63,355 nt of DNA. Source: a virus (taxonomy: Duplodnaviria; Caudoviricetes). The notes beneath the pieces are model-generated. The model searched no databases and was not told the DNA's origin. It saw only the letters and a program-made list of their open reading frames with translations. The stretch is taken from the IMG/VR virus record IMGVR_UViG_3300050015_000312, positions 1-63,355 of that record. One strand, written 5' to 3'. Positions 3,519 to 24,148 of the stretch are shown here, piece after piece. A program made the translations under genes and the position numbers. Position 1 is the stretch's first letter. Every line of letters begins with the position of its first letter.

Positions 3519-4228
3519 TGGCGACCGCAGCCGAAGTAATCACGCCCGAGGTGCTCCCAGCCGAGCAGCTCAAGACGAAGGCGCTCTCGCTGCCCGAGCA
3601 GGCGCGCGCGGTCAAGATCGTCGACCAGGCGACATACAACGACGCAGCCGAGCTGCTCGTCTCCGTCACAGCGATGCGCCGGAAGATCACCGACTACCAC
3701 GCGCCGCTGAAGCAGAAGGCTTTCGAGGCGCACAAAGCGATCTGTAGCGCCGAAGCCGAGATGCTCGCGCCGATCTCCGAAGCCGAGCGCGTTCTGAAAT
3801 CCGGGATCGCGACGTACACCGCGGAGCAGCGCCGCATCGAAGACGAGCGGCGTCGGCAACTTGAAGCCGAGATCCGCAAGAAGGCCGAAGAGGACCAACT
3901 CGCTGCGGCCATCGAAGCCGAGCAACAGGGCGCCACCGTTGAAGAGGTCGCGGCCGTGCTGGCCGAGCCCGTGGTCGTGCCGCGGGTGGCTCCGCAGCCG
4001 GTATTCCAGCCGGCGAAGGGTGTCAGTACACAGCGGCGGTGGAGCGCCGAGGTAATCAGCGTCCGGGATCTCTGCCGCGCGATTGCGGACGGCAAAGCGA
4101 GCCCGGAGTTGGCGCTGCCGAACATGCCGGCGCTGAACAAGCTCGCGGTAGCGCTAAAGGGCACGATGGCGATCCCGGGCGTCCGAGCGGTGGCAACAGA
4201 GACGGCCGTTGCGGCCGGGAGGAGATAA
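3518..4228 (+). CDS. Coiled-coil phage recombination-module protein
   Basis: Coiled coil with a C-terminal GVSTQRRWSAEV...IPGV motif; sits between the nuclease and the annealing-type gene. Confidence 0.6.
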   Translation: MATAAEVITPEVLPAEQLKTKALSLPEQARAVKIVDQATYNDAAELLVSVTAMRRKITDYHAPLKQKAFEAHKAICSAEAEMLAPISEAERVLKSGIATYTAEQRRIEDERRRQLEAEIRKKAEEDQLAAAIEAEQQGATVEEVAAVLAEPVVVPRVAPQPVFQPAKGVSTQRRWSAEVISVRDLCRAIADGKASPELALPNMPALNKLAVALKGTMAIPGVRAVATETAVAAGRR

Positions 4229-4233
4229 CGATC

Positions 4234-5418
4234 ATGGCAACAACACAAGCGCCCGATAGAACGAAGATGTACGGCCTGCTTCACGACCCCAGCACAGGTG
4301 CCGACATCCGGCGCCAGGTGCGAATCCTGAAGGTCGGCATCGGCGTCCCCAAAGGCCCCGATGTTCACGTCTGGATCGACGCGTCCGGGAAGTGGACCAT
4401 CGAGGTGGGGCATACCGAGAACGGAAAACGGGTGTCCGGCGCTACGCGCTTCGACACACGCGCCGAGGCGCAGAAGTTCTACGCCGAGTCCCGCAAGACC
4501 GCTGTGATCCGGACCTACCCGGCGAAGTTTCCGTACTTCACGTTCCTGCGGATGGGAATCTCGGGCGACTACGTCCACGACTTCGACGCAATCGAACAAC
4601 ACGGACCGATCCCGAATGAGATTGAGATTGTGTTGCTGACGGACGCGCCGCTCGACGCCGCGTACCAGTGGTTCACGGAATCGCGGCTCAACTGCGAGGG
4701 TGACGGCTGCCACGCCCGCCGGCGGGTCGAGGCTGCGACCGCAGAAGATCGGCCGCTCGCCGAGGCCGCGGCGGCAGCCGGCGAGAAGTGGTTTCTGCTC
4801 GATCGCTGCCATGTCGACGACTGCCCGTTTTCAAAAGCGACGGAAGAGAACGGCCGCGAGAAGCCACCGCGGTGCAAGCCGCATGGCCGGCTGTACTTCC
4901 AACTCGTGAACCAGCCTCGGATCGGCGGCACCGCGACGTTTGACACGACCGGGTTCCGCTCGATTTCGCAGCTTCACTCCTGCATTCAGGAGATCAAGAT
5001 GGTCACGGGCAACGGCGATCCCGCTCGCGGCTATATCGCCGGCATCCCGCTGACGATGGTGCTCCGGCCTTACAAGGTCAACCACAACGGTAAGGCATCG
5101 GTGCAGTACGGTGTTTCGCTCGAATTCCGCGCGCAGAACGCTGTCGAGTTGCGGCGGCTGCTGGTCGAGCACGGCCAGGCATACCGGTCCGCGATCACCG
5201 GATCGGGCGAGATCGTGGACGTAATCCCGGAGGCTCGGCACCTCGCGGCGCCCGTTCCGGAGGACCAGGACGCGGACGCGCCCGCCATGGCCGCCGAGTA
5301 TTACCCGGACGAAGAAGGCCCGGAAGATGGAGAACCCGAAGAGGGCGCGCAGCCTGGCGGAATTCAGATGCCGCGCCGGAAGTCGGATTCGGCGCCCGCG
5401 CCCCAGGAGGCCAAGTAA
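4234..5418 (+). CDS. Recombination directionality factor-like (Gp3-like) or putative ssDNA-annealing protein
   Basis: CKPHGRLYFQL...FDTTGFRSISQL...IAGIPLTMVLRP pattern; acidic C-terminal tail. Confidence 0.65.
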   Translation: MATTQAPDRTKMYGLLHDPSTGADIRRQVRILKVGIGVPKGPDVHVWIDASGKWTIEVGHTENGKRVSGATRFDTRAEAQKFYAESRKTAVIRTYPAKFPYFTFLRMGISGDYVHDFDAIEQHGPIPNEIEIVLLTDAPLDAAYQWFTESRLNCEGDGCHARRRVEAATAEDRPLAEAAAAAGEKWFLLDRCHVDDCPFSKATEENGREKPPRCKPHGRLYFQLVNQPRIGGTATFDTTGFRSISQLHSCIQEIKMVTGNGDPARGYIAGIPLTMVLRPYKVNHNGKASVQYGVSLEFRAQNAVELRRLLVEHGQAYRSAITGSGEIVDVIPEARHLAAPVPEDQDADAPAMAAEYYPDEEGPEDGEPEEGAQPGGIQMPRRKSDSAPAPQEAK

Positions 5419-6548: not shown

Positions 6549-6691
6549 ACCAGCGTCGGCGGGCACGGTGACCCGCTCTGACGAGGTAGATGGTGCGGCG
6601 TCCGCTAACGGGCCAAGCTCCGTGACGTGGCCTCTGGAGTATTCGATCCTTCAACCGCGCGAGCCGGTTCAACTCCGGCGCGCTGGCACCA
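6549..6691 (+). ncRNA. tRNA-like RNA with canonical T-arm, 3' CCA and an oversized central region
   Basis: T-arm GCCGG-TTCAACT-CCGGC; acceptor (A)CCAGCGT/GCGCTGG(C) followed by ACCA; D-like stem GCGGG/CCCGC; no clear anticodon arm. Confidence 0.5.
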
Positions 6692-6712
6692 GTAACCCAG
6701 GAGCTATTTTCT

Positions 6713-7216
6713 ATGCCGAAAAAGACAGCAGATAAAATGCAGGCCGTACGCGCGGCCCGCTACAAGGTCGCCTTCAAGCTCGTGCCGGCGGCCGATGTCA
6801 ACCTGGACTTCTCGCCACGCGCCCGGATGACTTCGCCGTACCGTTCGGCGATCGAAGAACTCCTGAAGATGGAGAACGGCGCCAAGATCCTGGAATTCCC
6901 CAACCGCCCCCACGTCAGGTCGCAGGTCATGAAGCATGCCCGAGAACTCGGGGTGAAGCCGCTGTTCGCCGAGGCCGAGGATAAGCTCTTCGTGAAGCTC
7001 GCTCCGCGTCCGAAGGTGAACCAGCAGATTCTCGACTTCATCCGCGTCCGGCCGCGCACGCGGTCTGAGCTGGAGTCGTTGGTGTTGAATCAGAAAATTG
7101 AGTGCAATCTCATCGCGGAGTTGCACGCCCTGCAGGACGCTGCGCTGATTCGCCTCAACAGCGAGTCGAAGTGGTACGACACGAAGACCTGTGTCAACGG
7201 GAGGCCGAAAGCATGA
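6713..7216 (+). CDS. Basic hypothetical protein, possible C-terminal winged helix
   Basis: AGGAG RBS; QILDFIRVRPRTRSEL...LIRLNSESKWY. Confidence 0.6.
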   Translation: MPKKTADKMQAVRAARYKVAFKLVPAADVNLDFSPRARMTSPYRSAIEELLKMENGAKILEFPNRPHVRSQVMKHARELGVKPLFAEAEDKLFVKLAPRPKVNQQILDFIRVRPRTRSELESLVLNQKIECNLIAELHALQDAALIRLNSESKWYDTKTCVNGRPKA

Positions 7217-7485
7217 CGAGCATCGTTGCAGCGTTGATCTTGCTCGTGGTCCTGCTGGTGGCCGTCTGGGTCATAGCCCCGCGACGCGGTTCTCACGCCA
7301 CCGCAATCCAGCGCCTGATCCGGGCGCTCTACCTCCTGGCCGCGTGGTTTCAGGATCTCGCCATTGCCATCGACCGCGGCTATCTGGCGTACCGCATGGA
7401 GCGGGCGCTCAATGAGATCGAGCCGGAGAATGAGCGGTGGGGCGGGGCGGAGTGGCGCGAGCCGGAGAGCGAGGCTGCGGCATGA
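7213..7485 (+). CDS. Membrane hypothetical protein
   Basis: N-terminal TM MTSIVAALILLVVLLVAVWVI; ATGA coupling. Confidence 0.5.
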   Translation: MTSIVAALILLVVLLVAVWVIAPRRGSHATAIQRLIRALYLLAAWFQDLAIAIDRGYLAYRMERALNEIEPENERWGGAEWREPESEAAA

Positions 7486-7814
7486 GCGACATCAACCCCA
7501 CCGCTCAAGACCTGCACGCAATCGACCAGACCATCGAGGCGGCCCACCAGGAGATGGGTGCCGCGCACGGCCGATCGGAGCGCGACGAGGACGGCCAGTA
7601 TTGGACCCGTAACCACGACGAGGTTATGAAACTGGTCCGCTACGTCAACCAAGCCAGCGCCAAGATCCAGCAACTCGACGCTCAGGTCTGGGTACTCGAA
7701 AAGGATTTGCGGGAAGCGCGCGGGGCAGCCCAGAGGCGGCTCTATGCTGCCGTGCTCCTACTGGTCGTGCTCCTTGTTGCGGCGCGCATCGCTCTCGATA
7801 GGGGGCTCCTGTGA
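7482..7814 (+). CDS. Coiled-coil protein with C-terminal TM
   Basis: ATGA coupling; hydrophobic C-terminus. Confidence 0.5.
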   Translation: MSDINPTAQDLHAIDQTIEAAHQEMGAAHGRSERDEDGQYWTRNHDEVMKLVRYVNQASAKIQQLDAQVWVLEKDLREARGAAQRRLYAAVLLLVVLLVAARIALDRGLL

Positions 7815-8176
7815 CCGCAACCGAGAGGATACCAGCGATGCCGCACACAATCACCCCCGATCAGATCCGCGCCGGCCAGGTCGTCCGCGTGACCCGCAAC
7901 GGAGTTCCGCTACGCTTCCGGGTCGATCGCGCCGGTCAGGCCTGCGTCGTGCTGCACCGCATCGGGGCTACGCTGCCTGTCAATGACGCGCGGACATTTC
8001 TGGCGCTCTGCGGTCCCGCGCAACCGGTGAACGACAGTGGGCGGTGGCTGCATCAGGGCCTTGGCCTTCCGGAGGCTGGCGGGCTGGCGTGCATCGCCAC
8101 GCGGCATGGCGACGAGCTGCGGGTGGGCGGCGCGGCGGTTGCGGTGGAGTTGGTTGCGGACCCGAGGAACAACTGA
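7811..8176 (+). CDS. Hypothetical protein
   Basis: GTGA coupling. Confidence 0.45.
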   Translation: MTATERIPAMPHTITPDQIRAGQVVRVTRNGVPLRFRVDRAGQACVVLHRIGATLPVNDARTFLALCGPAQPVNDSGRWLHQGLGLPEAGGLACIATRHGDELRVGGAAVAVELVADPRNN

Positions 8177-8177
8177 A

Positions 8178-10361
8178 ATGAATGAGACACAAGGCTTCAA
8201 GCTGATTCCGCTCGCGCAATTGCACGAGTCGCTACTCAATCCGCGCCGGCATTTTGACGAAGCGCGCATGGCCGAACTGACCGACAGTGTGCGGGTTCAT
8301 GGAATTCTGACCCCGTTGCTGGTCCGGCCGAACAGCGATGGCTACGAGATCGCAGCCGGCCATCGCCGCTTCCGGGCCGCTCTGCGCGCCGAGCTGGCGG
8401 AGGCCCCGGCTGTCGTGCGGGCGATGACCGATCAGCAGTTCGTCGAAGTGGTCACGATTGAGAATCTACAGCGCGAAGACGTGCACCCGATCGAAGAGGC
8501 CGCAGGTTACCAGCGCCTCATCGGCAGCTACGGATACACGCCGGCGATGCTGGCCGAGCGCGTTGGCCGCAGCGAGAGCTACATCGCGAAGAGGCTGGCG
8601 CTGACTCGGTTGATCGAGCCGGCAAAGTCAGCGTTTCTCGAAGGCAGAATCCAACTCGGGCATGCGCTGCTGCTCGCGCGGCTGCAACCCGACGACCAGC
8701 AGGAAGCGTTTAAGGAGGCACTATTCGAGCGAGGCGAGCGTTGGGGGGGCGGAAAGCGGGTAAAGGTCACTCCGGCCGCGGTGTCCGTGTCATCACTCGA
8801 CGACTGGATTCGCGAGAACGTGTACCTCGACCTGAGTTCCGCCGCCTGGCGCAAAGACGATGTGACGCTGCTCGCCGGCGCGGGGGCGTGCATATCCTGC
8901 ACAAAGCGGAGCGGTGCGAACGGCCTGCTTTTTGACGACGTAAAGAAAGGCGACATCTGTCTGGACGCCGAGTGCTTCCACCAGAAGCGCGACAACCACT
9001 TGATCGCGGTGCAGAAAGCGGCGGAAGAAAAAGGCACGCCGCTGGTCCGGATCGCGCGCGAGTACGTGCCTGACGCTTCAAAGCAGGGCGTGCTCAGCAC
9101 CGGAGCGTACCACCTGATCTCCGGAAAGACGGACCGCTGCGAGTATGCGGAAAAGGCTGTCATCGCAGTGGGCTCACGCGAGATCGGGAAGATCACGGAC
9201 ATCTGCCGGACGAAGGCGTGTAAGAAGCACGGCAATTGCCTCTATGGCTCCGGAGTTGCCGGCGGCCAGAAGACCTCGGCGGAGATGGCGGAAGAGCGAC
9301 GGGAGCGCCTGGCAAAGAAAATCGACATCGCGGCCCGGCAGGAAGTTCTCAGGGATGCAGTCGGCCAGATTCCATTCAATCCCGGTCCGCGCGAGTTCAC
9401 ACTCATTGCGCAGCAGATCCTGCCGACTGTGAAGTCCGAGGCGCGTAAGGCAATCGCGTACGCGTTCAGCGCTGAACATACTACCGATTGGGGAAAGCTC
9501 GAAGAGCGCATCGAGAAGATGGATCAGGGCGAAGTCGTGCGCTTCCTGGTTGCGTGCTGCCTGGCTGAAGGTGCGACGGAGTTCAGCTGGGAGAAGTCGA
9601 AGCAGCTGCTCTCGGACATGGCGCTCTCCTACGGTGTTCCGGTGAAGACGGTTTCTGAGCGAGTCGCGGCTCCGCTCAAGTTGAAGTTCGAGAAATCCGA
9701 GGCAGCCAGAAAGAAACGAGAGGCTGCGGAGAAAGCGGCGTCGAAGAAGAAAGCCGGGGCGATCTCGGATAAGGGTGAGACGAAACCCGCGTCTGCTGAG
9801 ACGAAGAAGGCGAAGCGCGGGACGACGGCCGCGACGGCCCGCGTCTGGCCGAAGCCGAACGAGCACGGGGTATACGATCCAAAGGATTGCATCAGCATCC
9901 CGTACCCGGGGAAGGATCTCGTTGCGCGAATACTGCTCGTTGAAACGGAGAATGGATGGATCGGAAGCTTCGAGGCGGGAGTGACCGACGCCGGGACCGG
10001 AGGCTTCCCGGGAGCAAAAGATCAGGCGTTTCCTTCTCAGATGGAGGCACTGGAACACGAGTGCACGGGAATTATCACGTGGGTCGGGAATGCGCGCGCC
10101 ACGCAGCGCTCGAATAAGTCCCTCGCTCAGCTGTCAAAACTTCAGAAGTGGGCCAGGAAGTTGCAGGAGGATGCGCGTGACGTCGGCGGCCAGCAGCGCG
10201 TGGCCTCCGGCGAGCGCGATCCAGCGGACCCAGACGTCCGCACCTGCCGAGTCTGCGGCTGCACCGACAACGACTGCCGCGGCTGCATCGAGCGCACCGG
10301 CGAGCCCTGCCACTGGGTAGCTCCGGACCTCTGTAGTGCGTGCGAAGGCGAGGAATCGTAG
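8178..10361 (+). CDS. parB: ParB/Spo0J-family protein with long C-terminal extension and terminal Zn-finger
   Basis: NPRRHFD...LTDSVRVHGILTPLLVRP...IAAGHRRFRAA...ENLQREDVHPIEEA; C-terminal CRVCGCTD...C...CHWV...CSAC. Confidence 0.85.
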   Translation: MNETQGFKLIPLAQLHESLLNPRRHFDEARMAELTDSVRVHGILTPLLVRPNSDGYEIAAGHRRFRAALRAELAEAPAVVRAMTDQQFVEVVTIENLQREDVHPIEEAAGYQRLIGSYGYTPAMLAERVGRSESYIAKRLALTRLIEPAKSAFLEGRIQLGHALLLARLQPDDQQEAFKEALFERGERWGGGKRVKVTPAAVSVSSLDDWIRENVYLDLSSAAWRKDDVTLLAGAGACISCTKRSGANGLLFDDVKKGDICLDAECFHQKRDNHLIAVQKAAEEKGTPLVRIAREYVPDASKQGVLSTGAYHLISGKTDRCEYAEKAVIAVGSREIGKITDICRTKACKKHGNCLYGSGVAGGQKTSAEMAEERRERLAKKIDIAARQEVLRDAVGQIPFNPGPREFTLIAQQILPTVKSEARKAIAYAFSAEHTTDWGKLEERIEKMDQGEVVRFLVACCLAEGATEFSWEKSKQLLSDMALSYGVPVKTVSERVAAPLKLKFEKSEAARKKREAAEKAASKKKAGAISDKGETKPASAETKKAKRGTTAATARVWPKPNEHGVYDPKDCISIPYPGKDLVARILLVETENGWIGSFEAGVTDAGTGGFPGAKDQAFPSQMEALEHECTGIITWVGNARATQRSNKSLAQLSKLQKWARKLQEDARDVGGQQRVASGERDPADPDVRTCRVCGCTDNDCRGCIERTGEPCHWVAPDLCSACEGEES

Positions 10362-13226: not shown

Positions 13227-13613
13227 ATGTGCTGCACGTCCTATCGTCGAACCGCCGCTGACCACCGCGCCACCCTCGAAGCCAAGCGCGCCGAACTCCA
13301 GGCACGCCTCCGGGACCGGGTGCCCATCGAAGTCGAGCGTCACGCGGATCCGCTCGACGACACCTGGCAGCTCGCGGCCCGTGAGGTCGCAGCCGGCACG
13401 TTCACCCACGACACCGCGCTGCTGTGCCAGGTCGAGGCGGCTCTCGCGCGGATCTCGGATGGGAGCTTCGGCGTCTGCTCCTCGTGCCTGGAAGCGATAA
13501 GCCCGGCGCGGCTCCGGGCGGTGCCGTGGGCAGCATTGTGCCGGCCATGCGCTGAGCTGGTAGAGGACGAGCGGGCCGCGGCGGAAGTGGCGTGCGGAGG
13601 GCTGAGCGAATGA
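13227..13613 (+). CDS. dksA: TraR/DksA-family C4 zinc-finger regulator
   Basis: ADPLD..A coiled-coil tip; AALARISDGSFGVCSSC...ISPARLRAVPWAALCRPC. Confidence 0.85.
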   Translation: MCCTSYRRTAADHRATLEAKRAELQARLRDRVPIEVERHADPLDDTWQLAAREVAAGTFTHDTALLCQVEAALARISDGSFGVCSSCLEAISPARLRAVPWAALCRPCAELVEDERAAAEVACGGLSE

Positions 13614-14050
13614 GCCCACGGCAAGGTCCGCCGCAGTTGACGGAGCAGCAGATCTCGGAGCTGGGCGGATACTCGCCCGAGCAGGTCGCGTCGATTACTG
13701 GTATTTCGGTCCCCACGCTGGCGAGTTGGCGCAGTCAGCGAAAAGGCCCGCCGTACCGCAAGTACGGCCGCTCGATCCGGTATCCAGCCCAGATACTTCG
13801 AGAATGGTTAGAATCGCAGACCAGAGGCTTCAATGAAGAACAAGGACGGACAGCGAGACGGGTTACGGGTACGGGGCGGAAAGTGGACGTACCGCATTTG
13901 GGTGCAAGGCCGGTGCTACCCAGGCACCACCGACTTGGCCGCCACCGAACGCAACAGGAGCGCCGCGATTCGCGACCGGGAGGAGCACAGGCGGGCGATC
14001 CTCGAGGGCCGCGAGTTTCGACGCAAGCTGGAGATCATCCCGTTCAATGA
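13610..14050 (+). CDS. xis: Excisionase-like HTH protein
   Basis: YSPEQVASITGISVPTLASWRSQRKGPPYRKYGRSIRY; directly upstream of, and overlapping, int. Confidence 0.75.
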   Translation: MSPRQGPPQLTEQQISELGGYSPEQVASITGISVPTLASWRSQRKGPPYRKYGRSIRYPAQILREWLESQTRGFNEEQGRTARRVTGTGRKVDVPHLGARPVLPRHHRLGRHRTQQERRDSRPGGAQAGDPRGPRVSTQAGDHPVQ

Positions 14051-15113
14051 GGCCGCTGAGGGCTTCCTGAAGTGGGTGGATGGCGAATACCGGGAGCACC
14101 CGCGCAGCGCCAAGCGAATCCGCGGCAGCTTCACCAGCCTGAAGAACTTCTTCAAGCGGCGCCCCGTGTCAGCCATCACCGCCGGGAGCATCGAAGACTA
14201 CAAGGCGCACCGCCGCACCGATCACGAGGTCAAAGAAGTCACGCTACGGCACGACCTACACGCGCTGAGCTTGTTCTTCCAGTACGCCGGGAAGCATCGC
14301 TGGTCCCAGGACAATCCAGTGGACGACGTCGAGATCCCGAGCGATGCCGAATCCGTCCGAATGCACGTTCTGACGCCGGCAGAAGAGAGCGCCTATTTTG
14401 CGGCGTGCCTCCGCGGAAAACGCAAAGTAGAAATCAAGGCGCACAAACGCAAGGGCGCGGTTCCCATCAAAGCGCACACACGCACCGTCGAGGGAGATTT
14501 TCGGAACATGCACGACCTCGGGCGACTGATGCTCAACCAGGGTTGTCGGCCGGAGGAGTTGCTTGAGCTGCGCAAGGACGCGGTGGACATTGATCACGGC
14601 CTCCTGCGAATCGCGCGCGGCAAGTCGAAAGCGGCTAAGCGCACCCTGAGACTCACGCCAGAGAGCGCGTTCATCCTCGAGGCGCGGATGCAGGGTGACA
14701 GCCCGTGGGTCTTTCCGAGCCCGAAGCGGGCGGGCCATCATCTGACGAAACTCAACACTGCGCACGACAAGGTCATCAAAGAAACCGGGCTCGCTTTCGT
14801 CATCTACGACTTCCGCCACACCTGCGCCACCAGGTGGGCCGAACGCGGAATGGACCTGGGAACCTTGGCGAAGCTGCTCGGGCATTCCAGCCTGCGGTCG
14901 GTCATGAAGTACGTTCACATCTCCCAGGAGCACATGAATCAGGCGATGGAGCGGTACGGCGAGGGGCACCCGGAGAATCAGACTTCAACGTCCGAGGTCG
15001 GTCTGAGGTCGGTTGCGGCGACAAAAGAGGGCCTTTCAGAGCAAATGAGCGTCATCGAGCACAAAGCAACTGGTGTTCGCAATCTTCAGGAAACAAAAGG
15101 GAAAATCCAATGA
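13833..15113 (+). CDS. int: Tyrosine integrase
   Basis: GCRPEE (R), GKS (K), YDFRHT (YxxR in place of HxxR), LLGH, VMKY (Y). Confidence 0.95.
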   Translation: MKNKDGQRDGLRVRGGKWTYRIWVQGRCYPGTTDLAATERNRSAAIRDREEHRRAILEGREFRRKLEIIPFNEAAEGFLKWVDGEYREHPRSAKRIRGSFTSLKNFFKRRPVSAITAGSIEDYKAHRRTDHEVKEVTLRHDLHALSLFFQYAGKHRWSQDNPVDDVEIPSDAESVRMHVLTPAEESAYFAACLRGKRKVEIKAHKRKGAVPIKAHTRTVEGDFRNMHDLGRLMLNQGCRPEELLELRKDAVDIDHGLLRIARGKSKAAKRTLRLTPESAFILEARMQGDSPWVFPSPKRAGHHLTKLNTAHDKVIKETGLAFVIYDFRHTCATRWAERGMDLGTLAKLLGHSSLRSVMKYVHISQEHMNQAMERYGEGHPENQTSTSEVGLRSVAATKEGLSEQMSVIEHKATGVRNLQETKGKIQ

Positions 15114-15246
15114 AATCATGGAGGCGCGGGGGGGAATCGAACCCCCGAATAAAGGTTTTGCAGACCTTTCACTTGGGGACGCAACTACCTTTTCCTGCAT
15201 CAACGCATAATCGAAAACTCTCCATTGCGGTCGGTCTGAGGTCGGT
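14996..15246. repeat. 18-bp direct repeats flanking the att core (candidate integrase arm sites)
   Basis: GGTCGGTCTGAGGTCGGT at 14996-15013 and 15229-15246. Confidence 0.7.
15119..15168 (-). mobile_element. attP core: 3' half of tRNA-Cys(GCA)
   Basis: Reverse complement reads AAGGT-CTGCAAA-ACCTT anticodon arm, GGTTCGATTCC T-arm and GCGCCTCCA end; the 5' half is absent; lies just after the int stop. Confidence 0.9.
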
Positions 15247-16971: not shown

Positions 16972-17306
16972 GCGACCTCCTCCTGTCCCCAATGAAGCCC
17001 GCCCAGCTTCGTCGGGTGCGCACCCACCCCCGGCTCATAACCTGCGCGTGCGGGCGGCAGGAGATGGCGCCTGGTCAACGGAAGTGGTGCTCTGTCTGCG
17101 CCAAAGAGAAGACCCGCATCTACTCGCCTGAACAGCGGGCCGCGTTCAGGGACTCCCGCGAGGAAGACGGCGCCCTGGTCCGGCTCGACGGATGGTGCTG
17201 GAAATTTGCGAGCAGGGATCGGCGACTCCGGTTCCTGGACCGGGTACTCGGGCATGCGCGGTGGGTCGGGCGGGGTGGGGCGGTGGGGATGGAGGTTCCA
17301 GAGTGA
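16968..17306 (+). CDS. Hypothetical protein with Zn-finger
   Basis: GTGA coupling at both ends; CACG...CSVC. Confidence 0.45.
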   Translation: MSDLLLSPMKPAQLRRVRTHPRLITCACGRQEMAPGQRKWCSVCAKEKTRIYSPEQRAAFRDSREEDGALVRLDGWCWKFASRDRRLRFLDRVLGHARWVGRGGAVGMEVPE

Positions 17307-18256
17307 GACCGCTCTGTATTGATCTCTATGCGGGATTGGGCGGGTGGTCCGAGGGCTTTCTTGCCGAGGGCTACGATTGCATCGGCTTTGACATAGAGCG
17401 GCACGACTACGGCACGGGCGGGTATCCCGGCCAGCTCGTACTCCAGGACGTTCTCACGCTCCACGGATCGCAGTTCCGCAGCGCGGCGTGCATTGTCGCA
17501 TCGCCACCGTGCCAAGCGTACAGCTACATGGCGATGCCGTGGAAACGGGCGAAGGCGATGGCAGCGGAGATCCGGGCCGACGAAACCGGGCTGAAACACG
17601 CGGAATTGAACGCACTATTCAACGCCTGCTTCCGCATCCAGCACGAGGCGAGCGAAGCGGCTGGGCATCATATCCCACTCATGGCAGAGAACGTCAAGGG
17701 AGCGCAGCCGTGGGTGGGCCAGGCCAAGTGGCACTACGGGAGCTTCTACCTCTGGGGTGATGTGCCCGCGCTGATGCCGAGCACGCTACATCACAAAGTT
17801 CCGGGATTTAATTTTTACCAGCACGAAAACGGCATAGCGGGTGGCTCGTTCCAATCGGCGGCGGTGAAGAACAGCGGCGGCTCTTGGCTCGCCATCGGCT
17901 CTCCGGGGCAGAAGGAAGTGGGCAGGAACCCGGTCCATGGAGGCGTCAAACAGCACGGCAGCGGAAGCGGTGTAAAGGTGCCAGGCAATCGGCTTTCCGA
18001 GAACGGATTCACAATTCCGATTGCCCGCATGATCGACAAAAGTCTGAAGCCGGATGCGTTCACGTTGAGCGCCGATGACCAAAGGCAGCACCTGTCGTTC
18101 AGCCGCAAGGCCGCATCCGCTCAGATTGCCAAGATTCCCCTCGACCTGGCGCGGTGGATCGCACGGTGCTACAAGCCCGCGGCCGAGATGGCTTTGGTGG
18201 CGGCGGATGCGGCGGCAATGGCGCCGCATCCTCAGGCCCCGGAGGCCCGGCCATGA
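17303..18256 (+). CDS. DNA cytosine-5 methyltransferase-like protein
   Basis: IDLYAGLGG (motif I), ASPPCQ (motif IV), ENVKG (motif VI). Confidence 0.8.
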   Translation: MRPLCIDLYAGLGGWSEGFLAEGYDCIGFDIERHDYGTGGYPGQLVLQDVLTLHGSQFRSAACIVASPPCQAYSYMAMPWKRAKAMAAEIRADETGLKHAELNALFNACFRIQHEASEAAGHHIPLMAENVKGAQPWVGQAKWHYGSFYLWGDVPALMPSTLHHKVPGFNFYQHENGIAGGSFQSAAVKNSGGSWLAIGSPGQKEVGRNPVHGGVKQHGSGSGVKVPGNRLSENGFTIPIARMIDKSLKPDAFTLSADDQRQHLSFSRKAASAQIAKIPLDLARWIARCYKPAAEMALVAADAAAMAPHPQAPEARP

Positions 18257-19716
18257 TCCTACGCGACTATCAGGAGCAAGCCACCCACCACCTTCGAGAC
18301 GCCTATCGAGAGGGCGCACGCGCGGTGATCCTCTACAGCCCGACGGGCAGCGGCAAAACTGTCATGGCCTGCGACGTCGTCTCGCGGGCCGTCGCCAAGG
18401 GCTCACGTGTGCTGTTTATCGGCGATTCCAGCGAGATCATCGAGCAGACGAGCGCGGCGCTGGACCAGTGGTCCGTCCCCCACGGCATCATTCAAGGCGG
18501 CCGGGCCAACCGGAAGCCCTGGGAAAACGTTCACGTCGCCACGATTCAGACCCTACGCAACCGCGAACTGCCGCCCGAGGACCTGGTGATCGTCGACGAA
18601 TGTCACCTTGCCAGAGCGATCACCTGGCAGCGCGTCATCGAACACTACCGCGCCGCCGGCGCGCGCCTGCTGGGGCTCTCGGCAACGCCCGTCCGCCTCG
18701 ACCAAAAAGGCCTTGGAAAGCTATTCGACCGGCTTGTATATTGCCCGTCGATTATCGACCTCACTGATCAGGGCTGGCTCGTGCCAGTGCGAATCTTCGC
18801 GCCGCCCGGTCCGGACCTCCGCGGCGTGCACAACCAGGCCGGAGATTTCAACAAGGGCGAACTCTCCGCGGCGTGCGACAAACGCAAACTGGTAGGCGAT
18901 GTCATCGCCCACTGGCTCAAGCACGCTCCCGGGCGACTGACGGCGGTATCGGCAGTCAGCATCGTCCACAGTCAGCACCTTCGCGACGAATTCCGCGCCG
19001 CCGGCATCCCGGCCGAGCACGTCGACGGCACAACCCCACGCGAAGAACGAAAGCGGATCCTAAAGGGGCTGGAGGCCGGCGCGTTCACCGTCCTCTGCCA
19101 GGTCGACATCTGTTCGAAGGGCTGGGACTGCAAGCCCATCTCGTGCCTCGTCGACGCGCGCCCTACGATGTCGCTGGCGCGTTGGCTACAGTTTGTCGGC
19201 CGCGGGCTGCGGATTTCTCCCGAGACGGGAAAAGCAGACTGCATCTTGCTCGACCACGCCGGCAACGTCCGAAAGTTCGGCATGCCTGACGAAGAGCGTG
19301 AGTGGTCGCTTGACGGCGCCGAGGGTGTGCGCGTGAAGCCGCGCGACACCGTCGAGTCTGTCCGCATGTGTAAGCAGTGTTGGATGGCGTTCCGCAGCTC
19401 CGAGCAGACGTGCCCGAATTGCGGATGGCGCTACACCGGCCGCCTGAACGACATCGAGCACGAAGCCGGAGAGCTGCAAGAGATCCAGCGGCAGCGGAAG
19501 CAGATGGCGATCCAGGTCTGGCGCGAGCGGCACCCCGACGATGCCCGACGCCGCAAGTTCGACGAGTTTATACGTATCGGCGTCGAGCGCGGCTACAAGC
19601 CTGGTTTTGCGATCCAGCGGTACCGCGCGATCTTCTTGGAGGATCCGCCTCGGGAATGGATGCAGACGGCCTTTGTGGCGGCACGGGCGGGCGAGGGCGC
19701 GGCGGTGAACTCGTGA
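18253..19716 (+). CDS. SF2 DEAD/DEAH-box helicase
   Basis: LRDYQ, SPTGSGKT, IVDECH, LSATP, QFVGRGLR; C-terminal CxxC pair. Confidence 0.92.
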   Translation: MILRDYQEQATHHLRDAYREGARAVILYSPTGSGKTVMACDVVSRAVAKGSRVLFIGDSSEIIEQTSAALDQWSVPHGIIQGGRANRKPWENVHVATIQTLRNRELPPEDLVIVDECHLARAITWQRVIEHYRAAGARLLGLSATPVRLDQKGLGKLFDRLVYCPSIIDLTDQGWLVPVRIFAPPGPDLRGVHNQAGDFNKGELSAACDKRKLVGDVIAHWLKHAPGRLTAVSAVSIVHSQHLRDEFRAAGIPAEHVDGTTPREERKRILKGLEAGAFTVLCQVDICSKGWDCKPISCLVDARPTMSLARWLQFVGRGLRISPETGKADCILLDHAGNVRKFGMPDEEREWSLDGAEGVRVKPRDTVESVRMCKQCWMAFRSSEQTCPNCGWRYTGRLNDIEHEAGELQEIQRQRKQMAIQVWRERHPDDARRRKFDEFIRIGVERGYKPGFAIQRYRAIFLEDPPREWMQTAFVAARAGEGAAVNS

Positions 19717-19730
19717 GGCTGAGCGCCATC

Positions 19731-20783
19731 CTATCCCACCGCGTGAATCGTCGGCACGACAGCCAGCTCCTCCGCCACGTTGACCGGGATCGGCGGCAGC
19801 CAGTGCAGGATCAACTTGCGCTCGGTCTCGGCGGCCACGCCGGGCTTGGCTTTGGGCCCGGTCCAAAAACTGTGCCAGTGCGCGGTACGGATATGCGGTC
19901 GCGGGCTTGCGTGTGTGCTCCCCGGGCCGCGCTCGCGGTGTGCGGCGGACTCCTCGGCAGCGCGGATCGCGGCACCGATGCGCCAGCCTACATCCCAGGC
20001 CGCGGGATGATCCGGAGGGAACCACCGCGGGCCGTGCTTGGTGATCTTCGGTCGCGGATAGTGGGGCGCGGCCGAGTCTCCGTCATGCCGGAGGATATCG
20101 GCGTGTTGGGAGCACAAGTACAGGGTCAGCGAGATCATGGGCGCCAGCTCGGCAGCGAACTTGGCCGAGAAATCGACGTCTGGCAAAGCGGCACCACCCG
20201 ATGCCTCTCGCGCGGCGGTGAGCCAGGCGCGCAGGCCCTCTTCGACCGTGCCCACGATTGGCAGCGGAAGGGAGACGTCCAGCACCTCGCCGTAATCGAC
20301 GTGGAAGCGGAGCCAAGGTGTCTCCGCAACGCCGTCGGCGTAAGATCGCGCATCCCAGTCAATCGAGACGAAAAAGCCATAGCTCTCCCGCCCGCGAAAG
20401 ATCGCTCCCGGCGTCTCGATGTAGCAGCACCATTCCGGCAGCCGCAGCAACACCTCGCCTGGCAGATCGCCCGTGATGGGCGTATCCCAGAGCGCCTGAA
20501 GCATCGTCGGGTCGAAGCGATAGATACCCTGCGCAGTGCGCCACGCCGCGAGACCAGCCAGGGCTCCTGCGGTGGATCGATCGATGTCTCCATGCACCGC
20601 ACTTACCGCCGCCCACACGGCGCCCGAGGGGATAAAGCACCACGCGGGCCAGCTCGGCAATTCACGGCCGCGACAGTCGCGCGCTGCGTCGAGGATGCGC
20701 CAGCAGTCTGGGGTCTGGGCGGCCATGCGCGTCAGGTAGGCGCGAAGACGCTCGACGGTCTGCTCGGTGTCCGGCGTCAGCAC
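19731..20783 (-). CDS. acrVA2: AcrVA2/FinQ-family protein (putative anti-CRISPR)
   Basis: AWRTAQGIYRFD, LLRLPEWCCYI, LTLYLCS, WDVGWRIG, PRPHIRTAHWHSFWTG and HWLPPIPVN match AcrVA2 motifs recalled from memory. Confidence 0.75.
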   Translation of the reverse strand: MLTPDTEQTVERLRAYLTRMAAQTPDCWRILDAARDCRGRELPSWPAWCFIPSGAVWAAVSAVHGDIDRSTAGALAGLAAWRTAQGIYRFDPTMLQALWDTPITGDLPGEVLLRLPEWCCYIETPGAIFRGRESYGFFVSIDWDARSYADGVAETPWLRFHVDYGEVLDVSLPLPIVGTVEEGLRAWLTAAREASGGAALPDVDFSAKFAAELAPMISLTLYLCSQHADILRHDGDSAAPHYPRPKITKHGPRWFPPDHPAAWDVGWRIGAAIRAAEESAAHRERGPGSTHASPRPHIRTAHWHSFWTGPKAKPGVAAETERKLILHWLPPIPVNVAEELAVVPTIHAVG

Positions 20784-20999
20784 TTATGGCCTCGCTTGCC
20801 TGCCGTCGCCTTGGTGTATTTTCCGCAGGCGCAACGATCCGAAGACTTGGGCCTTCCACCGAGCCTTCCAACCTCGCGCGGATCGTCGCCGGTCTTGGTC
20901 CACCGACGCTTACCGAGATTCGATGCTGGGCTGTCCTTCACGTGTCCTCCTTCCGGAACTTGCCGGCGGCAGGGCCGATCCCGCCGCCGGCTGGAAATG

Positions 21000-22001
21000 C
21001 TACAGTTTCACCGTCCGCGTAAATTGGAACGGACCACACGGAATGGTGATCTCGGCGGTGTAGTACGGGGGCGCGGCGCTCTCGCCCTCACCGTCCCAGC
21101 CATCGTCCCGCAGACACTCGCGCACGCGGTCGAACGTCACCGCGTAGCCCTCCGGCAGTTTCGCCTTCAGCGCGCGCCAGGCGGGATAGACCGAACGCGG
21201 AAGGGCATCCACGTCGGCAGAGCCGCACGGGCAATCGCTGTCTTTACAGACGTGCGGTTCTGTCGCGGGTTCCGGCACTCCATGCTCCGCGAATGCCGCA
21301 TCGGCGATCAGTGCGAGGGCGGCCTTGCGGGACAGCAGTCCATCGGCGAACTGGTCCCGATCTTCGTCGGTCCCGTGCTCGGAGATCCAGGCCTCAATAA
21401 AATTGGACTTTGCCTGCTCTTTGGCGAGCTCAGCGACGTCTTTGGCCGCGCGGTCAGCGGCGTTTCGGCGCTCGATCTCCACCCTGAGCGCGTCATGTTT
21501 CTCCGGCCACCAATTCGCCGGACCCTGGATATCACCCTCTCCGAGCTGACGGACGAGCGCGCGGATTCGGTCGTACAATTCGCCGGAGCGAGCGGACGGG
21601 TCCGCCATGAATTTCCGATAGGCGGCCTCGGTGAGCTGGCGGTTGTGCTCACCGTTTTCGGCGAGTACGCGGGCCTCTTCTTCCGCCGCCTCCGCCAGTT
21701 TTGCGCGGCCGACGCGGACCTGCGCCAGGTCCGGAACGCCAGAAAAATAAATTCCGCTCCCGCCATTCCAGGTTTCGACTGTCCCGCTGGCGCGAAAGGC
21801 GCGGCCGATGCCATTAGATCCCGCCATAACACTCGTCAGGTCTACGGTGATAGAGCCGTCGCCCGCGACCGGGAACAACTCCAGATCTTCGGGCGCCACC
21901 TCGATGGTAATGACCTGTTTGCGCGCTACCGGCTGGCCCGTGGCCGCCATCTGCTCGCGTTGTGCCTGCTCGGTGAGCAGGTATGTGATCGTGGCTTGCA
22001 T
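21000..22001 (-). CDS. Hypothetical protein (moron cassette)
   Basis: AGGAG RBS before ATG 22001; acidic; small Cys cluster. Confidence 0.7.
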   Translation of the reverse strand: MQATITYLLTEQAQREQMAATGQPVARKQVITIEVAPEDLELFPVAGDGSITVDLTSVMAGSNGIGRAFRASGTVETWNGGSGIYFSGVPDLAQVRVGRAKLAEAAEEEARVLAENGEHNRQLTEAAYRKFMADPSARSGELYDRIRALVRQLGEGDIQGPANWWPEKHDALRVEIERRNAADRAAKDVAELAKEQAKSNFIEAWISEHGTDEDRDQFADGLLSRKAALALIADAAFAEHGVPEPATEPHVCKDSDCPCGSADVDALPRSVYPAWRALKAKLPEGYAVTFDRVRECLRDDGWDGEGESAAPPYYTAEITIPCGPFQFTRTVKL

Positions 22002-22121
22002 TTTCGTCTCCTGCCGGCTCATGGCCGGCTTGTACTGCGGGGTTGTGACCGCTCCGGCGATGCCGGACCCGCATTAGGCCGGGAGCGCTCCCGGCTCACT
22101 CTGCGATGGCGGTGCGGGGCA

Positions 22122-22535
22122 TCAGCGGGGCTCCCGGCGGACGAGGTACAGATAGTTTGCGTCGGATCTGCACGCCACTCGGATACCCATCTCCGCCAGC
22201 GCGTGGCGTACACTCGACTGCCATTCTCTGCGCCGATTCTGCCCTGGGTACTCGATGCGCAGCGCCTCGCTGTTACTGAGCTGCTGTACGGCAGCGATGA
22301 TATCGGCGTACTTTCCCTGCCTCCTAGCCCTTTCTTGCGGCACGGAAGTTGTCGGAACAACGCTCATGCGGTACGCGTGAGTCTGGACCGCCGCCGGAGC
22401 AGGTCTCGCCGCATGACATATCTGCCAGATGCGGGAACGAGAGACCCCTATGCGTTCGGCAATCTCCTTGGGAATCATCCCCTTTGCGTGCATCTCCAGT
22501 ACTGCGGGCTGGTCGATTTTGCTGATGCGCGCCAT
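22122..22535 (-). CDS. HTH protein (Aca-like candidate)
   Basis: GMIPKEIAERIGVSRSRIWQI HTH; GGAGG RBS. Confidence 0.7.
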   Translation of the reverse strand: MARISKIDQPAVLEMHAKGMIPKEIAERIGVSRSRIWQICHAARPAPAAVQTHAYRMSVVPTTSVPQERARRQGKYADIIAAVQQLSNSEALRIEYPGQNRRREWQSSVRHALAEMGIRVACRSDANYLYLVRREPR

Positions 22536-23063
22536 TTAGCGGGCCTCCGCTGGGTTTCTCAGGTCGTCCTCGGAGACCTCCCCAATGGCGAGCAAGTCCG
22601 CCACGGTTTTTTGCGGCCCGCTGCTCTCTGTGGTATACGCAGGCAGCGCGGATACCTCGTCGTCGCTCATCTCCCCGGCATTCCAACGGGCAGCCTGCTC
22701 CGCAGACATCTTGATGGTGATCCATCCATCCACGATGTATTTGTTCGCCTCCGCTCTCGATCTGATCTCCGCCTGCGTCAACCGCGCAATGAGCGTCTCC
22801 AGCGCGGCGCAGATCTTCGTGGCAGCCTCACGCTCGGTGACATCGTCCCACGCCGTCAGGTCGCCCAGGCGTTGCCGCAGACTCATCGAGCCTCCGCGCC
22901 ATTCTCGGAAGCTCCCCACGGTCTCGCAAGCCACCGGCCCGATGGCCTCGGTATATCCTTCCAGATACATCTCAGCCACGGCCGCGCGTGCGGCCGGTTC
23001 CGGCAGCAAGTGAGCATCCACCTGGTCCGCAATGATTTCGGCGTTCGTGTTGATGTAGATCAT
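22536..23063 (-). CDS. Acidic hypothetical protein (moron cassette)
   Basis: GGAGG RBS; abuts the next gene. Confidence 0.65.
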   Translation of the reverse strand: MIYINTNAEIIADQVDAHLLPEPAARAAVAEMYLEGYTEAIGPVACETVGSFREWRGGSMSLRQRLGDLTAWDDVTEREAATKICAALETLIARLTQAEIRSRAEANKYIVDGWITIKMSAEQAARWNAGEMSDDEVSALPAYTTESSGPQKTVADLLAIGEVSEDDLRNPAEAR

Positions 23064-23087
23064 TTCATCCTCCGTCTAGCCTCGCGT

Positions 23088-23294
23088 TCAGCGGGAAAAC
23101 CACTCAGCGTCAGATCCAACAAAAGCGCGGAGTTCGCTGCCATCCACGCAGGAACAACCCCTATCGAGGCGGATGTCGTACATGCCCGTCAGGATTCGGG
23201 CGTGGACATCCCTAACGACCGCGTGAAAGTTCTGTTCCGTGTAGAGTACCCGCTGCCCTTCCGCGAACTTTTCAACCGCTTTGTTGTTTTCCAT
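23088..23294 (-). CDS. Small hypothetical protein (moron cassette)
   Basis: GGAGG RBS. Confidence 0.6.
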   Translation of the reverse strand: MENNKAVEKFAEGQRVLYTEQNFHAVVRDVHARILTGMYDIRLDRGCSCVDGSELRAFVGSDAEWFSR

Positions 23295-23372
23295 GTCTCA
23301 CTCCTCCATCTGGCCGTCCGCCGATCCATGCGTCGGGCGGTCAGGTGGGCCGGGGCGAGCCCGGCTCAGATG

Positions 23373-23624
23373 CTACGCGGCGGCTGGCTGCCAGTTGGCG
23401 CCGACCTCGATCCGTATCGTCGAGTGGCAATACACCATGTTGCTCCAGCCGCTCTTGCTGTAGGCGCTGGGGTGGCTGATCCGCGTGCCGCCGCGGGTCT
23501 CGTAGTGCCAGGACTCGCCGGTGAGCTTCGGCGCGGCATTGGTCTCGGGGATGGCAACTATCGGGTAGGGGGTGCCGGATGCGCAAGCGGCCTTCCGGAT
23601 CTGGGTTTTCAACGTAGCGTTCAT
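23373..23624 (-). CDS. Small hypothetical protein, first gene of the moron
   Basis: GAGG RBS; directly downstream of the consensus promoter. Confidence 0.6.
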   Translation of the reverse strand: MNATLKTQIRKAACASGTPYPIVAIPETNAAPKLTGESWHYETRGGTRISHPSAYSKSGWSNMVYCHSTIRIEVGANWQPAAA

Positions 23625-23687
23625 GACGCCTCTTTTCTGCCGGCGATGCCGGCTCAATCTCGATCAAGCTGTGCTCAATCTAGAATC

Positions 23688-23716
23688 AGTATAAAAGCTG
23701 CGCTGGTTTTTGTCAA
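23688..23716 (-). promoter_or_regulatory. Near-consensus sigma70 promoter driving the moron
   Basis: TTGACA-17 bp-TATACT on the minus strand, in an AT-rich patch. Confidence 0.85.
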
Positions 23717-23761
23717 TAGATATATTTCGTGTGTTTTCAACAACATGAGAGAGGCTACGGT

Positions 23762-24148
23762 ATGACCCTCAGCGCCAACGATCTCACGAAGCTCCTGCTC
23801 CTGGAGATCCCGGTCCGCCTGGCCCCTGCCCGCGCCTGGAGGCGCAACGTCCTCGCGGCAAAGATCCCCGATGGCCACGGCGGCCCGGGGCGCTTCGTGC
23901 GCTCGACGCAGCTCCCCGGCGAGGCCGACATCACGGGCGTGCTCGACATCAACGGCGTCGGGGTCCGCTTGGAGGTCGAGGTGAAGGCGGGGAGCGACCG
24001 GATACGGCCCGCGCAGCAGGTCTTCGGCGACATGATCCGGAGCATGGGTGGGATCTACTGCGTCGCCCACGATGTCGAGCGCGCGATCGCGGAGATCACC
24101 GCTGCCCGCACGGAGCTGGCGCGCCGGATCCAGGCGACAAACTCATGA
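23762..24148 (+). CDS. VRR-NUC domain nuclease
   Basis: PGEADITG...LEVEVKAGSDRIRPAQQVF...GGIYCV. Confidence 0.85.
   Translation: MTLSANDLTKLLLLEIPVRLAPARAWRRNVLAAKIPDGHGGPGRFVRSTQLPGEADITGVLDINGVGVRLEVEVKAGSDRIRPAQQVFGDMIRSMGGIYCVAHDVERAIAEITAARTELARRIQATNS

Follow-up and report, generated by a model that had tools for sequence, protein, structure and literature searches.

A seven-gene minus-strand cassette with a predicted twister ribozyme and an AcrVA2/FinQ-family gene in a peat-soil phage

The IMG/VR virus record IMGVR_UViG_3300050015_000312 is a linear sequence of 63,355 bases, ~74% complete according to CheckV, and we refer to this whole stretch of DNA as the window. Coding is almost wholly on the plus strand. 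The sole multi-gene block on the minus strand, hereafter the cassette, is found between a phage DNA helicase gene recognized by profile matches (18154..19716, plus strand) and a VRR-NUC nuclease gene with an intact, native-like N-terminus (23762..24148, plus strand). The explanation that we favour, with some reserve, is that the block from 19731 to 23716 is an accessory operon of mosaic make-up, carried by a temperate peat-soil phage in a variable slot within its replication module. Each part of the cassette is of a known kind, and the combination points to a portable gene-ribozyme-gene unit. What appears to be new is the conservation of this unit (a small gene called o83, a ribozyme and a gene for a 333-residue protein), in which twister and hammerhead ribozymes seem to have been exchanged between lineages.

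Genes of the cassette

An earlier reading of the window, made from its letters and open reading frames (ORFs) and called here the sequence-only reading, counted six genes in the block. Seven minus-strand ORFs are present, the short o54 having been overlooked. The guanine-plus-cytosine (GC) content by codon position is that of real genes in six of the seven, o54 being too short to tell, and the ORFs have ribosome-binding sites or coupled starts. A plus-strand ORF of 1462 amino acids (aa) running across the block was rejected as an antisense shadow and not a gene.

The first gene, o83 (23373..23624, minus strand like all that follow), codes for 83 aa of no known family and has a third-position GC of 0.88. 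It is followed by o68 (23088..23294, 68 aa), which has a GGAGGAG ribosome-binding site and for which we found no family in any library searched and no homologue in the fetched loci. The product of o175 (22536..23063, 175 aa) is a near-orphan, with 13 representatives at E <= 0.001 among 1.84 billion; it has apparently two domains, and its halves (residues 1-106 and 106-170) also occur as separate small proteins. Directly after the o175 stop (TAA ATG) starts the gene of a 137-aa protein (22122..22535) with an N-terminal helix-turn-helix (HTH) of resolvase type. The sequence-only reading was right in placing an HTH gene here, and the library matches are modest: Pfam HTH_23 is weak (E 4e-5, 23.7 bits against a cutoff of 24.6), the best PHROG is phrog_6223, 'transcriptional repressor' (E 2.8e-5), and among PDB sequences resolvase HTH domains appear at E 0.22.

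The fifth gene (21000..22001) belongs to a conserved uncharacterised phage family (the o340 family). The ORF extends over 340 aa and its true start is Met8 (22001), invariant in 59 aligned homologues, which leaves a protein of 333 aa. Neither this protein nor that of o175 had a usable match in the ESM Atlas. The overlooked o54 (20777..20941, 54 aa) codes for a basic protein, is preceded by an AGGAGG ribosome-binding site and has a stop codon that overlaps the start of the next gene; a homologue was found in another viral contig (L046, E 3e-7), with the common motif DRCxCGxYT...KRGHxC. The last gene of the operon (19731..20783, 350 aa) is of the AcrVA2/FinQ family. The PADLOC defence library gave no match for the seven cassette proteins except a weak one for the HTH protein (E 0.016).

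The assignment of the last gene, already proposed from the sequence alone, is supported by the comparisons that follow. Its product matches PDB 7ci1 (E 4.7e-17) over 235 residues (76-310) and phrog_6160 (E 3e-45), and 679 homologues at E <= 1e-10 all have the precomputed label PF26125 (PF26125.1). As given in the available part of the AcrVA2 mechanism paper (bioRxiv), AcrVA2 is weakened by the substitutions W79A and D89A and loses most of its activity with H286A, R288A or H291A, and H286 and R288 are family-wide conserved residues. In the alignment with 7ci1, AcrVA2 residues W79, D89, H286, R288 and H291 correspond to W81, D91, H297, R299 and H302 here; across 49 aligned homologues, W81, H297, R299 and H302 never vary and D91 hardly does. 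With both matches, the label of the homologues and the conserved activity residues, membership of the AcrVA2/FinQ family is well supported. Anti-Cas12a activity is not implied by such membership. The family, including FinQ, is described in the available text as present on many mobile elements, mostly without Cas12a, and as possibly acting on other targets, and FinQ, an AcrVA2 homologue, as an inhibitor of conjugation. The family gains here a soil-phage member, and the paper, in the part available, concludes that for most members the target is something other than Cas12a.

An N-terminal zinc ribbon is present in 14 of the 23 close homologues inspected; the window protein is without it and has a separate 54-aa gene in front. 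In the homologues that have it (L012 8226-9488; P0094-P0198) the ribbon shows the motif MKRRGCxDCxLxEP...CPxC and is accompanied by a proline-rich linker, both missing from the window protein. A locus scan with the AcrVA2-like protein retrieved one unrelated context (L005). Among 80 viral loci with AcrVA2-family genes the most frequent neighbour family was found in 8 at most, and the largest neighbour families were, by our own reading of the sequences, terminase-, integrase-, portal- and recombinase-like.

Promoter, leader and ribozymes

The TTGACA-17-TATACT promoter postulated by the sequence-only reading was confirmed on the minus strand (23688..23716, read from 23716 to 23688) as a sigma-70-like site matching 11 of 12 consensus positions. 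It is the single site of this quality in the 63-kb window, where one further site reaches 10/12; 30 shuffles gave a mean of 0.2 such sites. Two exact direct repeats of AGATTGAGC (23652..23681, minus strand) begin 6 nucleotides (nt) past the -10 hexamer, 21 nt apart from start to start. The window has no further exact copies. As RNA the two repeats fold into a hairpin, and they are a candidate operator or first leader hairpin.

The 13-mer CCGGCGATGCCGG does recur, as had been noticed, exactly at 22054-22066 and 23640-23652 and nowhere else in the window. Its reading as an operator is not supported, one copy being located within a twister ribozyme and the other being a structurally conserved leader hairpin. 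This leader hairpin, GCCGGC-AUC-GCCGGC (23639..23653, minus strand), is found immediately 5' of the A-rich Shine-Dalgarno of o83 and holds the first copy at ~+30 to +42 of the predicted transcript. A triloop hairpin with a 6-bp stem beside the Shine-Dalgarno is common to the modules of the window and of two other viral loci, L012 and L010, the stems reading GCCGGC/GCCGGC, GCGGCC/GGCCGC and GGGGCC/GGCCCU, respectively; by our own reading, three of the six stem pairs are altered on both sides between the three modules. The distance from hairpin to ribosome-binding site is kept in all three and that from hairpin to promoter varies. Since the stem covaries and the spacing to the ribosome-binding site is kept, an RNA element fits better than a fixed operator, a palindromic operator co-evolving with its regulator being a possible alternative.

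Between the HTH gene stop and the start of the 333-aa gene, a Twister-P5 ribozyme (Rfam RF02684) was detected on the minus strand (22037..22105). It scores 47.2 bits against a gathering score of 37.6 over model positions 1-58 of 58, with E-values of 2.5e-7 in 15 kb and 2.2e-6 in 133 kb; the covariance model scores without pseudoknots. In the alignment CGCAGAG, UAAUGCGG, CGGUC, CAA and CCCG fit the consensus, one consensus G (in CAAGCC) is a C here, and the second copy of the 13-mer (22054-22066) forms a hairpin insertion that separates two conserved parts. The cut, which we take to be at the U-A step of CCU/AAUGC, would fall between 22076 and 22075, and this self-cleaving element is predicted to split the cassette operon in two. 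GC-rich hairpins ending in CCCGGCTCA are found after the stop codons of both o83 (23347-23368) and the HTH gene (22077-22098), the latter being one stem of the twister.

The 333-aa family comprises 85 proteins at E <= 0.01 including that of the window (84 others), with no name and no Pfam domain, and its N-terminal motif MQATITYLLTEQAQR..TGQPVARKQ is nearly invariant. We compared eight distinct loci of the family, namely the window, L010, L011, L012 (the same as L014 over the module), L013, L015, L016 and L017. Directly upstream of the family gene there is an o83-like gene in five of the eight (window, L010, L012/L014, L013, where it is frameshifted, and L016, where it is truncated) and a ribozyme in four: the twister of the window and hammerheads in L012/L014, L013 and L015. 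A twister in one phage and hammerheads in three lineages are thus found before the same gene family. In the three hammerheads the cores CUGANGA...GAAA...NUH are intact and stems I-III are predicted, forming a three-stem junction; the one in L015 was found by its core and stems and is unreported by Rfam models at E <= 1. Searching 1.10 Mb on both strands for a hammerhead core with a paired stem II returned only these places and one in L030. Judging from these loci, the o83 and 333-aa genes form a portable unit with occurrences in further viral contigs. Between o83 and the ribozyme the window has o68, o175 and the HTH gene. The unit of L012 has a 10/12 promoter and a divergent HTH gene, and downstream of the unit come an AcrVA2-like gene and a D12 methyltransferase; the HTH protein of the window is 33% identical over 43 aa to the first helix-turn-helix of this divergent gene.

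Some further features of these loci deserve mention. The o83-like gene upstream of the L013 hammerhead (6685-6934) is split over two frames, by a frameshift or an assembly error. In L010 (~6975-6990) and L011 (~2305-2320) the hairpin GGGCGATTCGCC stands before the ribosome-binding site of the 333-aa homologue, which is the ribozyme position in other lineages; it has no Rfam match and may be a plain hairpin or an uncatalogued element. In the same peat sample, a separate 50.6-kb contig is similar to the 333-aa gene over its first 120 bases only (window 21882-22001, 14 differences) and diverges exactly at the start codon; it is another element with a family member, one whose 5' end is strongly conserved as DNA.

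The AlphaFold model of the 333-aa protein is very confident (predicted local distance difference test, pLDDT, of 95.5) and had no Foldseek match at E <= 0.001 in PDB or BFVD; the family profile retrieved nothing below E 0.87 from PDB sequences. With VIA-align the best Z was 4.6, and about a dozen weak rows (Z 3.3-4.6) placed residues 228-340 on nucleotidyltransferase-type folds. We rejected an enzyme of this type because that domain has no conserved acidic residues. The N-terminal 105 residues folded alone gave a pLDDT of 52, and a complex prediction of the 333-aa and 83-aa proteins scored 0.00 without controls, which is evidence neither way. A locus scan with the 340-aa protein alone retrieved no loci.

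Past 19731 the minus strand showed no intrinsic terminator, and cassette transcripts would therefore continue into the helicase gene in antisense. The block had been described as self-contained; this stands for its promoter and fails for the terminator. Conversely, plus-strand reading through the cassette would oppose cassette transcription. Back to back with the cassette promoter there is a TTGTCA-17-TGTTTT element (23710-23738, plus strand) that mirrors the divergent TTGTCA-17-TATTTT beside the L012 module; it may weakly drive VRR-NUC and later genes, which the cassette severs from upstream transcription.

The slot between the helicase and VRR-NUC genes

A metagenome scan with the VRR-NUC alignment gave four loci, three of them with both flanking genes (L007, L008 and L009). 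In L007 the helicase is 67% and VRR-NUC 55% identical to those of the window, and the slot holds one plus-strand gene of 183 aa; in L009 there is an ORF of 84 aa, and L008 has two proteins there, one of Ros/MucR plus HNH-repeat type and one of 103 aa. Hence in all three relatives the slot contains other plus-strand genes, without any minus-strand gene or any gene of the cassette, which indicates that the slot is variable and the cassette accessory. The idea of accessory cargo put forward in the sequence-only reading is well borne out by the strong promoter of its own, the variable slot and the absence of cassette genes from all three relatives. The arrangement that it proposed to look for, a helicase directly joined to VRR-NUC, was seen in none of the three relatives. 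The outcome that it named as speaking against its view, a cassette fixed as a core module in all relatives, was likewise seen in 0/3. The L008 protein (6891-7664), a Ros/MucR zinc-finger protein with a homing-endonuclease-associated repeat, is a further sign of a slot that collects mobile cargo.

An empty site was found neither in these three relatives nor in two further peat samples. Contigs from three peat runs contained the same phage in two samples, with no cassette-less form in the covered parts, and the identical phage sequence is present in contigs of two peat metagenome runs from different studies. Among isolated phages no close DNA relatives were detected, and those with ~40% identical helicases are not syntenic. 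Scans with the helicase alone, and of viral contigs with the VRR-NUC alignment, retrieved no loci.

At the left edge of the slot the helicase stop TGA (19714-19716) overlaps a GTG at 19713, just as the sequence-only reading had it. That reading also saw a duplication in the AGCGCCA at 19722-19728 and 23771-23777. Both copies exist, and as a duplication the 7-mer alone is within chance: when 20,000 window pairs placed 4049 nt apart were compared, 1.7% (20 nt long) to 10.2% (40 nt long) had an exact 7-mer in common. The longer 16-mers GTGAGGCTGAGCGCCA and ATGACCCTCAGCGCCA, each anchored on a start codon, agree at 12 of 16 positions. This level is reached at only 8 of 63,340 plus-strand positions and, among 1141 start-anchored 16-mers, in two, the left copy itself and the VRR-NUC start. 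The left, GTG-anchored copy (19713..19728, plus strand), which overlaps the helicase stop, may be what is left of the start of a coupled gene downstream. L007 shows a comparable overlap, there between the helicase stop and the ATG of the following gene, and this overlap together with the rare start-anchored match makes such a relic plausible; the match was picked post hoc, and that it stems from a displaced, translationally coupled gene start seems to us about as probable as that it does not. The VRR-NUC gene itself is undamaged, its N-terminus MTLSANDLTK resembling those of homologues (MTPTANDLTK, MPSANDIT, MTANDIT). Its nearest homologues, P0002 and P0003, are 65% and 64% identical to it.

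Besides the helicase and VRR-NUC genes, the replication module includes an ASCH-like gene, a C5 methylase and a primase zinc-ribbon gene. Comparison with L007 places the likely helicase start (MILRDYQ...) at the ATG at 18253, which overlaps the stop of the C5-methylase ORF (17192-18256); the 520-aa ORF from 18154 is probably overlong at its 5' end. An integrase gene is located at 13833-15113, and just past it an 18-base segment (15130-15147, minus strand) matches the 3' end of tmRNA (model positions 346-363, E 4.5e-4). This 18-mer is probably the attP core, in which case the phage would integrate into ssrA. The carrier of the cassette is on balance best explained as a temperate phage of peat soil, with the cassette in its replication module. 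Elsewhere in the window we found a Gp3-like recombination directionality factor domain (within 4039-5418), a 774-aa ParB-like protein (8037-10361) and a DksA/TraR zinc-finger protein (13227-13613).

Proposed working, alternatives and related systems

Among the 80 viral loci with AcrVA2-family genes, a member of the 333-aa family adjoins in only two (L012 and L014, identical over the module). With this rare adjacency and no neighbour family recurring in more than 8 of the 80, the cassette is best read, with the same moderate assurance, as a mosaic of separately travelling pieces: the promoter, leader hairpin, o83, ribozyme and 333-aa gene as one, o68, o175 and the HTH gene lodged inside it as a second, and o54 with the AcrVA2-like gene as a third.

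Several observations weigh against this interpretation or against parts of it. The slot is occupied in all three relatives, so the change may have been a gain here or swaps elsewhere. The GC of the cassette (0.615-0.665) is the same as in the remaining window, and there is accordingly no compositional sign of recent import. No defence or anti-defence profile in the libraries searched matched the unknown cassette proteins, and the Pfam-A scan run here returned no family for the AcrVA2-like protein, the PF26125 label being precomputed. The same two in 80 loci mean that the pieces need not work together. As for the ribozymes, two hammerheads are below the gathering scores of their models, L012/L014 with Hammerhead_1 (22.7 against 34, E 0.018) and L013 with Hammerhead_3 (27.2 against 48.5, E 0.1), a shortfall due in part to loops longer than in the models, and the Rfam scan of L010, L011, L016 and L017 gave no ribozyme match.

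From the anatomy of the sequence, the family memberships and the comparisons above, we infer how the cassette may be transcribed and cleaved and what its proteins might do, including any anti-defence role of the unknown ones. Transcription would start near 23681 from the one strong promoter and produce a leader with the GC triloop hairpin beside the ribosome-binding site. The first four genes (o83, o68, o175 and the HTH gene) would be translated from it, the last two being coupled (TAA ATG), and the twister would then cut the transcript. The second message, with a 5'-hydroxyl end, one or more hairpins near that end and a fate of its own, would cover the three remaining genes, from that of the 333-aa protein through o54 to the AcrVA2-like gene. 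The AcrVA2-like protein would, by homology, recognise the nascent N-terminal peptide of one target, which need not be Cas12a, and cause the loss of the target mRNA. Feedback on the promoter is the probable role of the HTH protein.

The main rival, which we find rather unlikely, is an immunity or exclusion operon expressed in the lysogen. Phage lambda cI-rexAB is the model for this kind of operon. The role of prophage repressor would fall to the HTH protein, whose gene is read against the lytic genes, and the cargo would exclude or handicap rival phages and plasmids in the lysogen, as FinQ does with the F plasmid, and would not serve for counter-defence at infection. The cassette being the only sizeable minus-strand block, with the only minus-strand HTH gene, in a window that has an integrase and an attP-like tmRNA 3' end, agrees with such a role, as do the 'transcriptional repressor' PHROG of the HTH protein and, within the available text, the inhibition of conjugation by FinQ and an AcrVA2 family mostly without Cas12a. 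However, the HTH gene is the fourth of the operon and not the first, and no repeated operator was found in common with another promoter region, the exact 9-mer repeat AGATTGAGC being confined to this leader. In addition, the similar HTH gene of L012 is divergent from the unit, as local regulators are, and with a record ~74% complete a classical repressor may sit in the missing part.

The sequence-only reading leaned towards an acr-aca-like island. In the strict form of this view the AcrVA2-like protein would be an anti-CRISPR, the HTH protein an Aca autorepressor acting on the palindrome CCGGCGATGCCGG at two sites, and the unknowns (four as first counted, five with o54) further inhibitors of defence, all of which we consider quite improbable. 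The AcrVA2 homology, the HTH gene in the same operon, the strong promoter and the two exact copies of the palindrome are what it builds on, and anti-defence genes are reported as clustered in mobile elements (in titles and abstracts). However, one of the copies is a hairpin inside a full-length twister match, and the other, at ~+30 to +42, keeps its spacing to the ribosome-binding site and not to the promoter, with stem letters that vary over the three modules. Furthermore, the HTH gene precedes the acr-like gene instead of following it, being the fourth of seven with the ribozyme and two genes between, an order that does not fit the strict arrangement. No named Aca family matched the HTH protein in Pfam, NCBIfam or PDB sequences (general libraries only), its generic HTH matches being below cutoffs, and the AcrVA2-family loci (80) have no conserved HTH neighbour. 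As to guilt by association, the AcrVA2 family member on which it was based is real, and the link of o83 and the 333-aa gene to it appears weak, with 2/80 loci.

That the cassette is a fixed core module of the phage group and the similarity at its junctions chance, as its composition equal to the remaining window and the same sequence in a second peat sample without a cassette-less variant might suggest, is hardly credible and largely refuted by its presence in 0 of 3 relatives with both flanking genes and by parts of it that occur elsewhere in unrelated contexts.

Within the mosaic accessory operon that we prefer, a bolder proposal can be made about the unit of o83, ribozyme and 333-aa gene, which we put forward as a speculation that is probably wrong. 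It could be one of the long-unexplained ribozyme-associated gene sets, with twister and hammerhead interchangeable, in which the cut would free a 5'-hydroxyl, hairpin-capped message for a counter-defence function or an inter-element weapon, made and surviving independently of the upstream regulator genes. If true, there would be a defined protein family and operon in which to test the purpose of bacterial twister and hammerhead ribozymes, and this purpose would be linked to phage-host conflict. The purpose of many such ribozymes in bacteria and phages, and the reason for the neighbours that the two classes have in common, are still open according to the available part of a 2019 review. The 333-aa family, with its very confident model and no recognised fold, and in an operon with an AcrVA2-family gene, is a small and concrete case in which the use of the cut can be studied. 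There is also a caution for annotation, since the repeated palindrome in this anti-defence-looking operon is a ribozyme stem and a leader hairpin and probably not an operator.

Four kinds of known systems can be compared with the cassette. A phage moron is an additional gene that sits between core genes and has a promoter and a terminator to itself. The cassette is similar in having its own promoter, in being absent from relatives and in lying between two core replication genes, and differs in that no terminator was detected, in its seven genes and in being itself a mosaic. With acr-aca operons it has in common that one transcription unit combines a strong promoter with an Acr-family and an HTH gene; the order and spacing, the HTH protein that matched no named Aca family in the general libraries, the RNA-type 'operator', the number of genes (seven) and the split by a ribozyme are different.

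Compared with AcrVA2 from the Moraxella bovoculi prophage (PDB 7CI1/7CI2), the Trp, the Asp and the C-terminal His-x-Arg...His needed for mRNA down-regulation are present here, and the gene is on a mobile element as are most members of the AcrVA2/FinQ family. In contrast, the window protein cannot be aligned before approximately residue 75, a region that also diverges between AcrVA2 and FinQ according to the available part of the mechanism paper.

The last comparison is with the ribozyme-punctuated operons of prophages. Perreault et al. 2011 (PMC3088659), in the part available, report prophage hammerheads on the flanks of single genes or short blocks, among them the anti-restriction gene ardA in Agrobacterium tumefaciens, and propose the processing of long phage transcripts. 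In the literature, covered partially, we found no natural self-cleaving ribozymes joined to anti-CRISPR or anti-defence operons save this ardA case, and the 333-aa family may already be among the published ribozyme-associated genes. In the 2019 review, as far as available, twister and hammerhead are stated to have gene neighbours in common for reasons undetermined, and the cutting of polycistronic RNAs into messages of differing stability is mentioned as a suggestion. The cassette differs from these operons in having a single ribozyme and no array, an AcrVA2-family gene aboard, a defined uncharacterised family (333 aa) as the downstream partner and a conserved 83-aa gene upstream. It resembles them in the position of its ribozyme, between cistrons and near an anti-defence-type gene, and in that differing ribozyme classes occupy one slot among the relatives of the cassette unit, which agrees with the gene associations common to twister and hammerhead.

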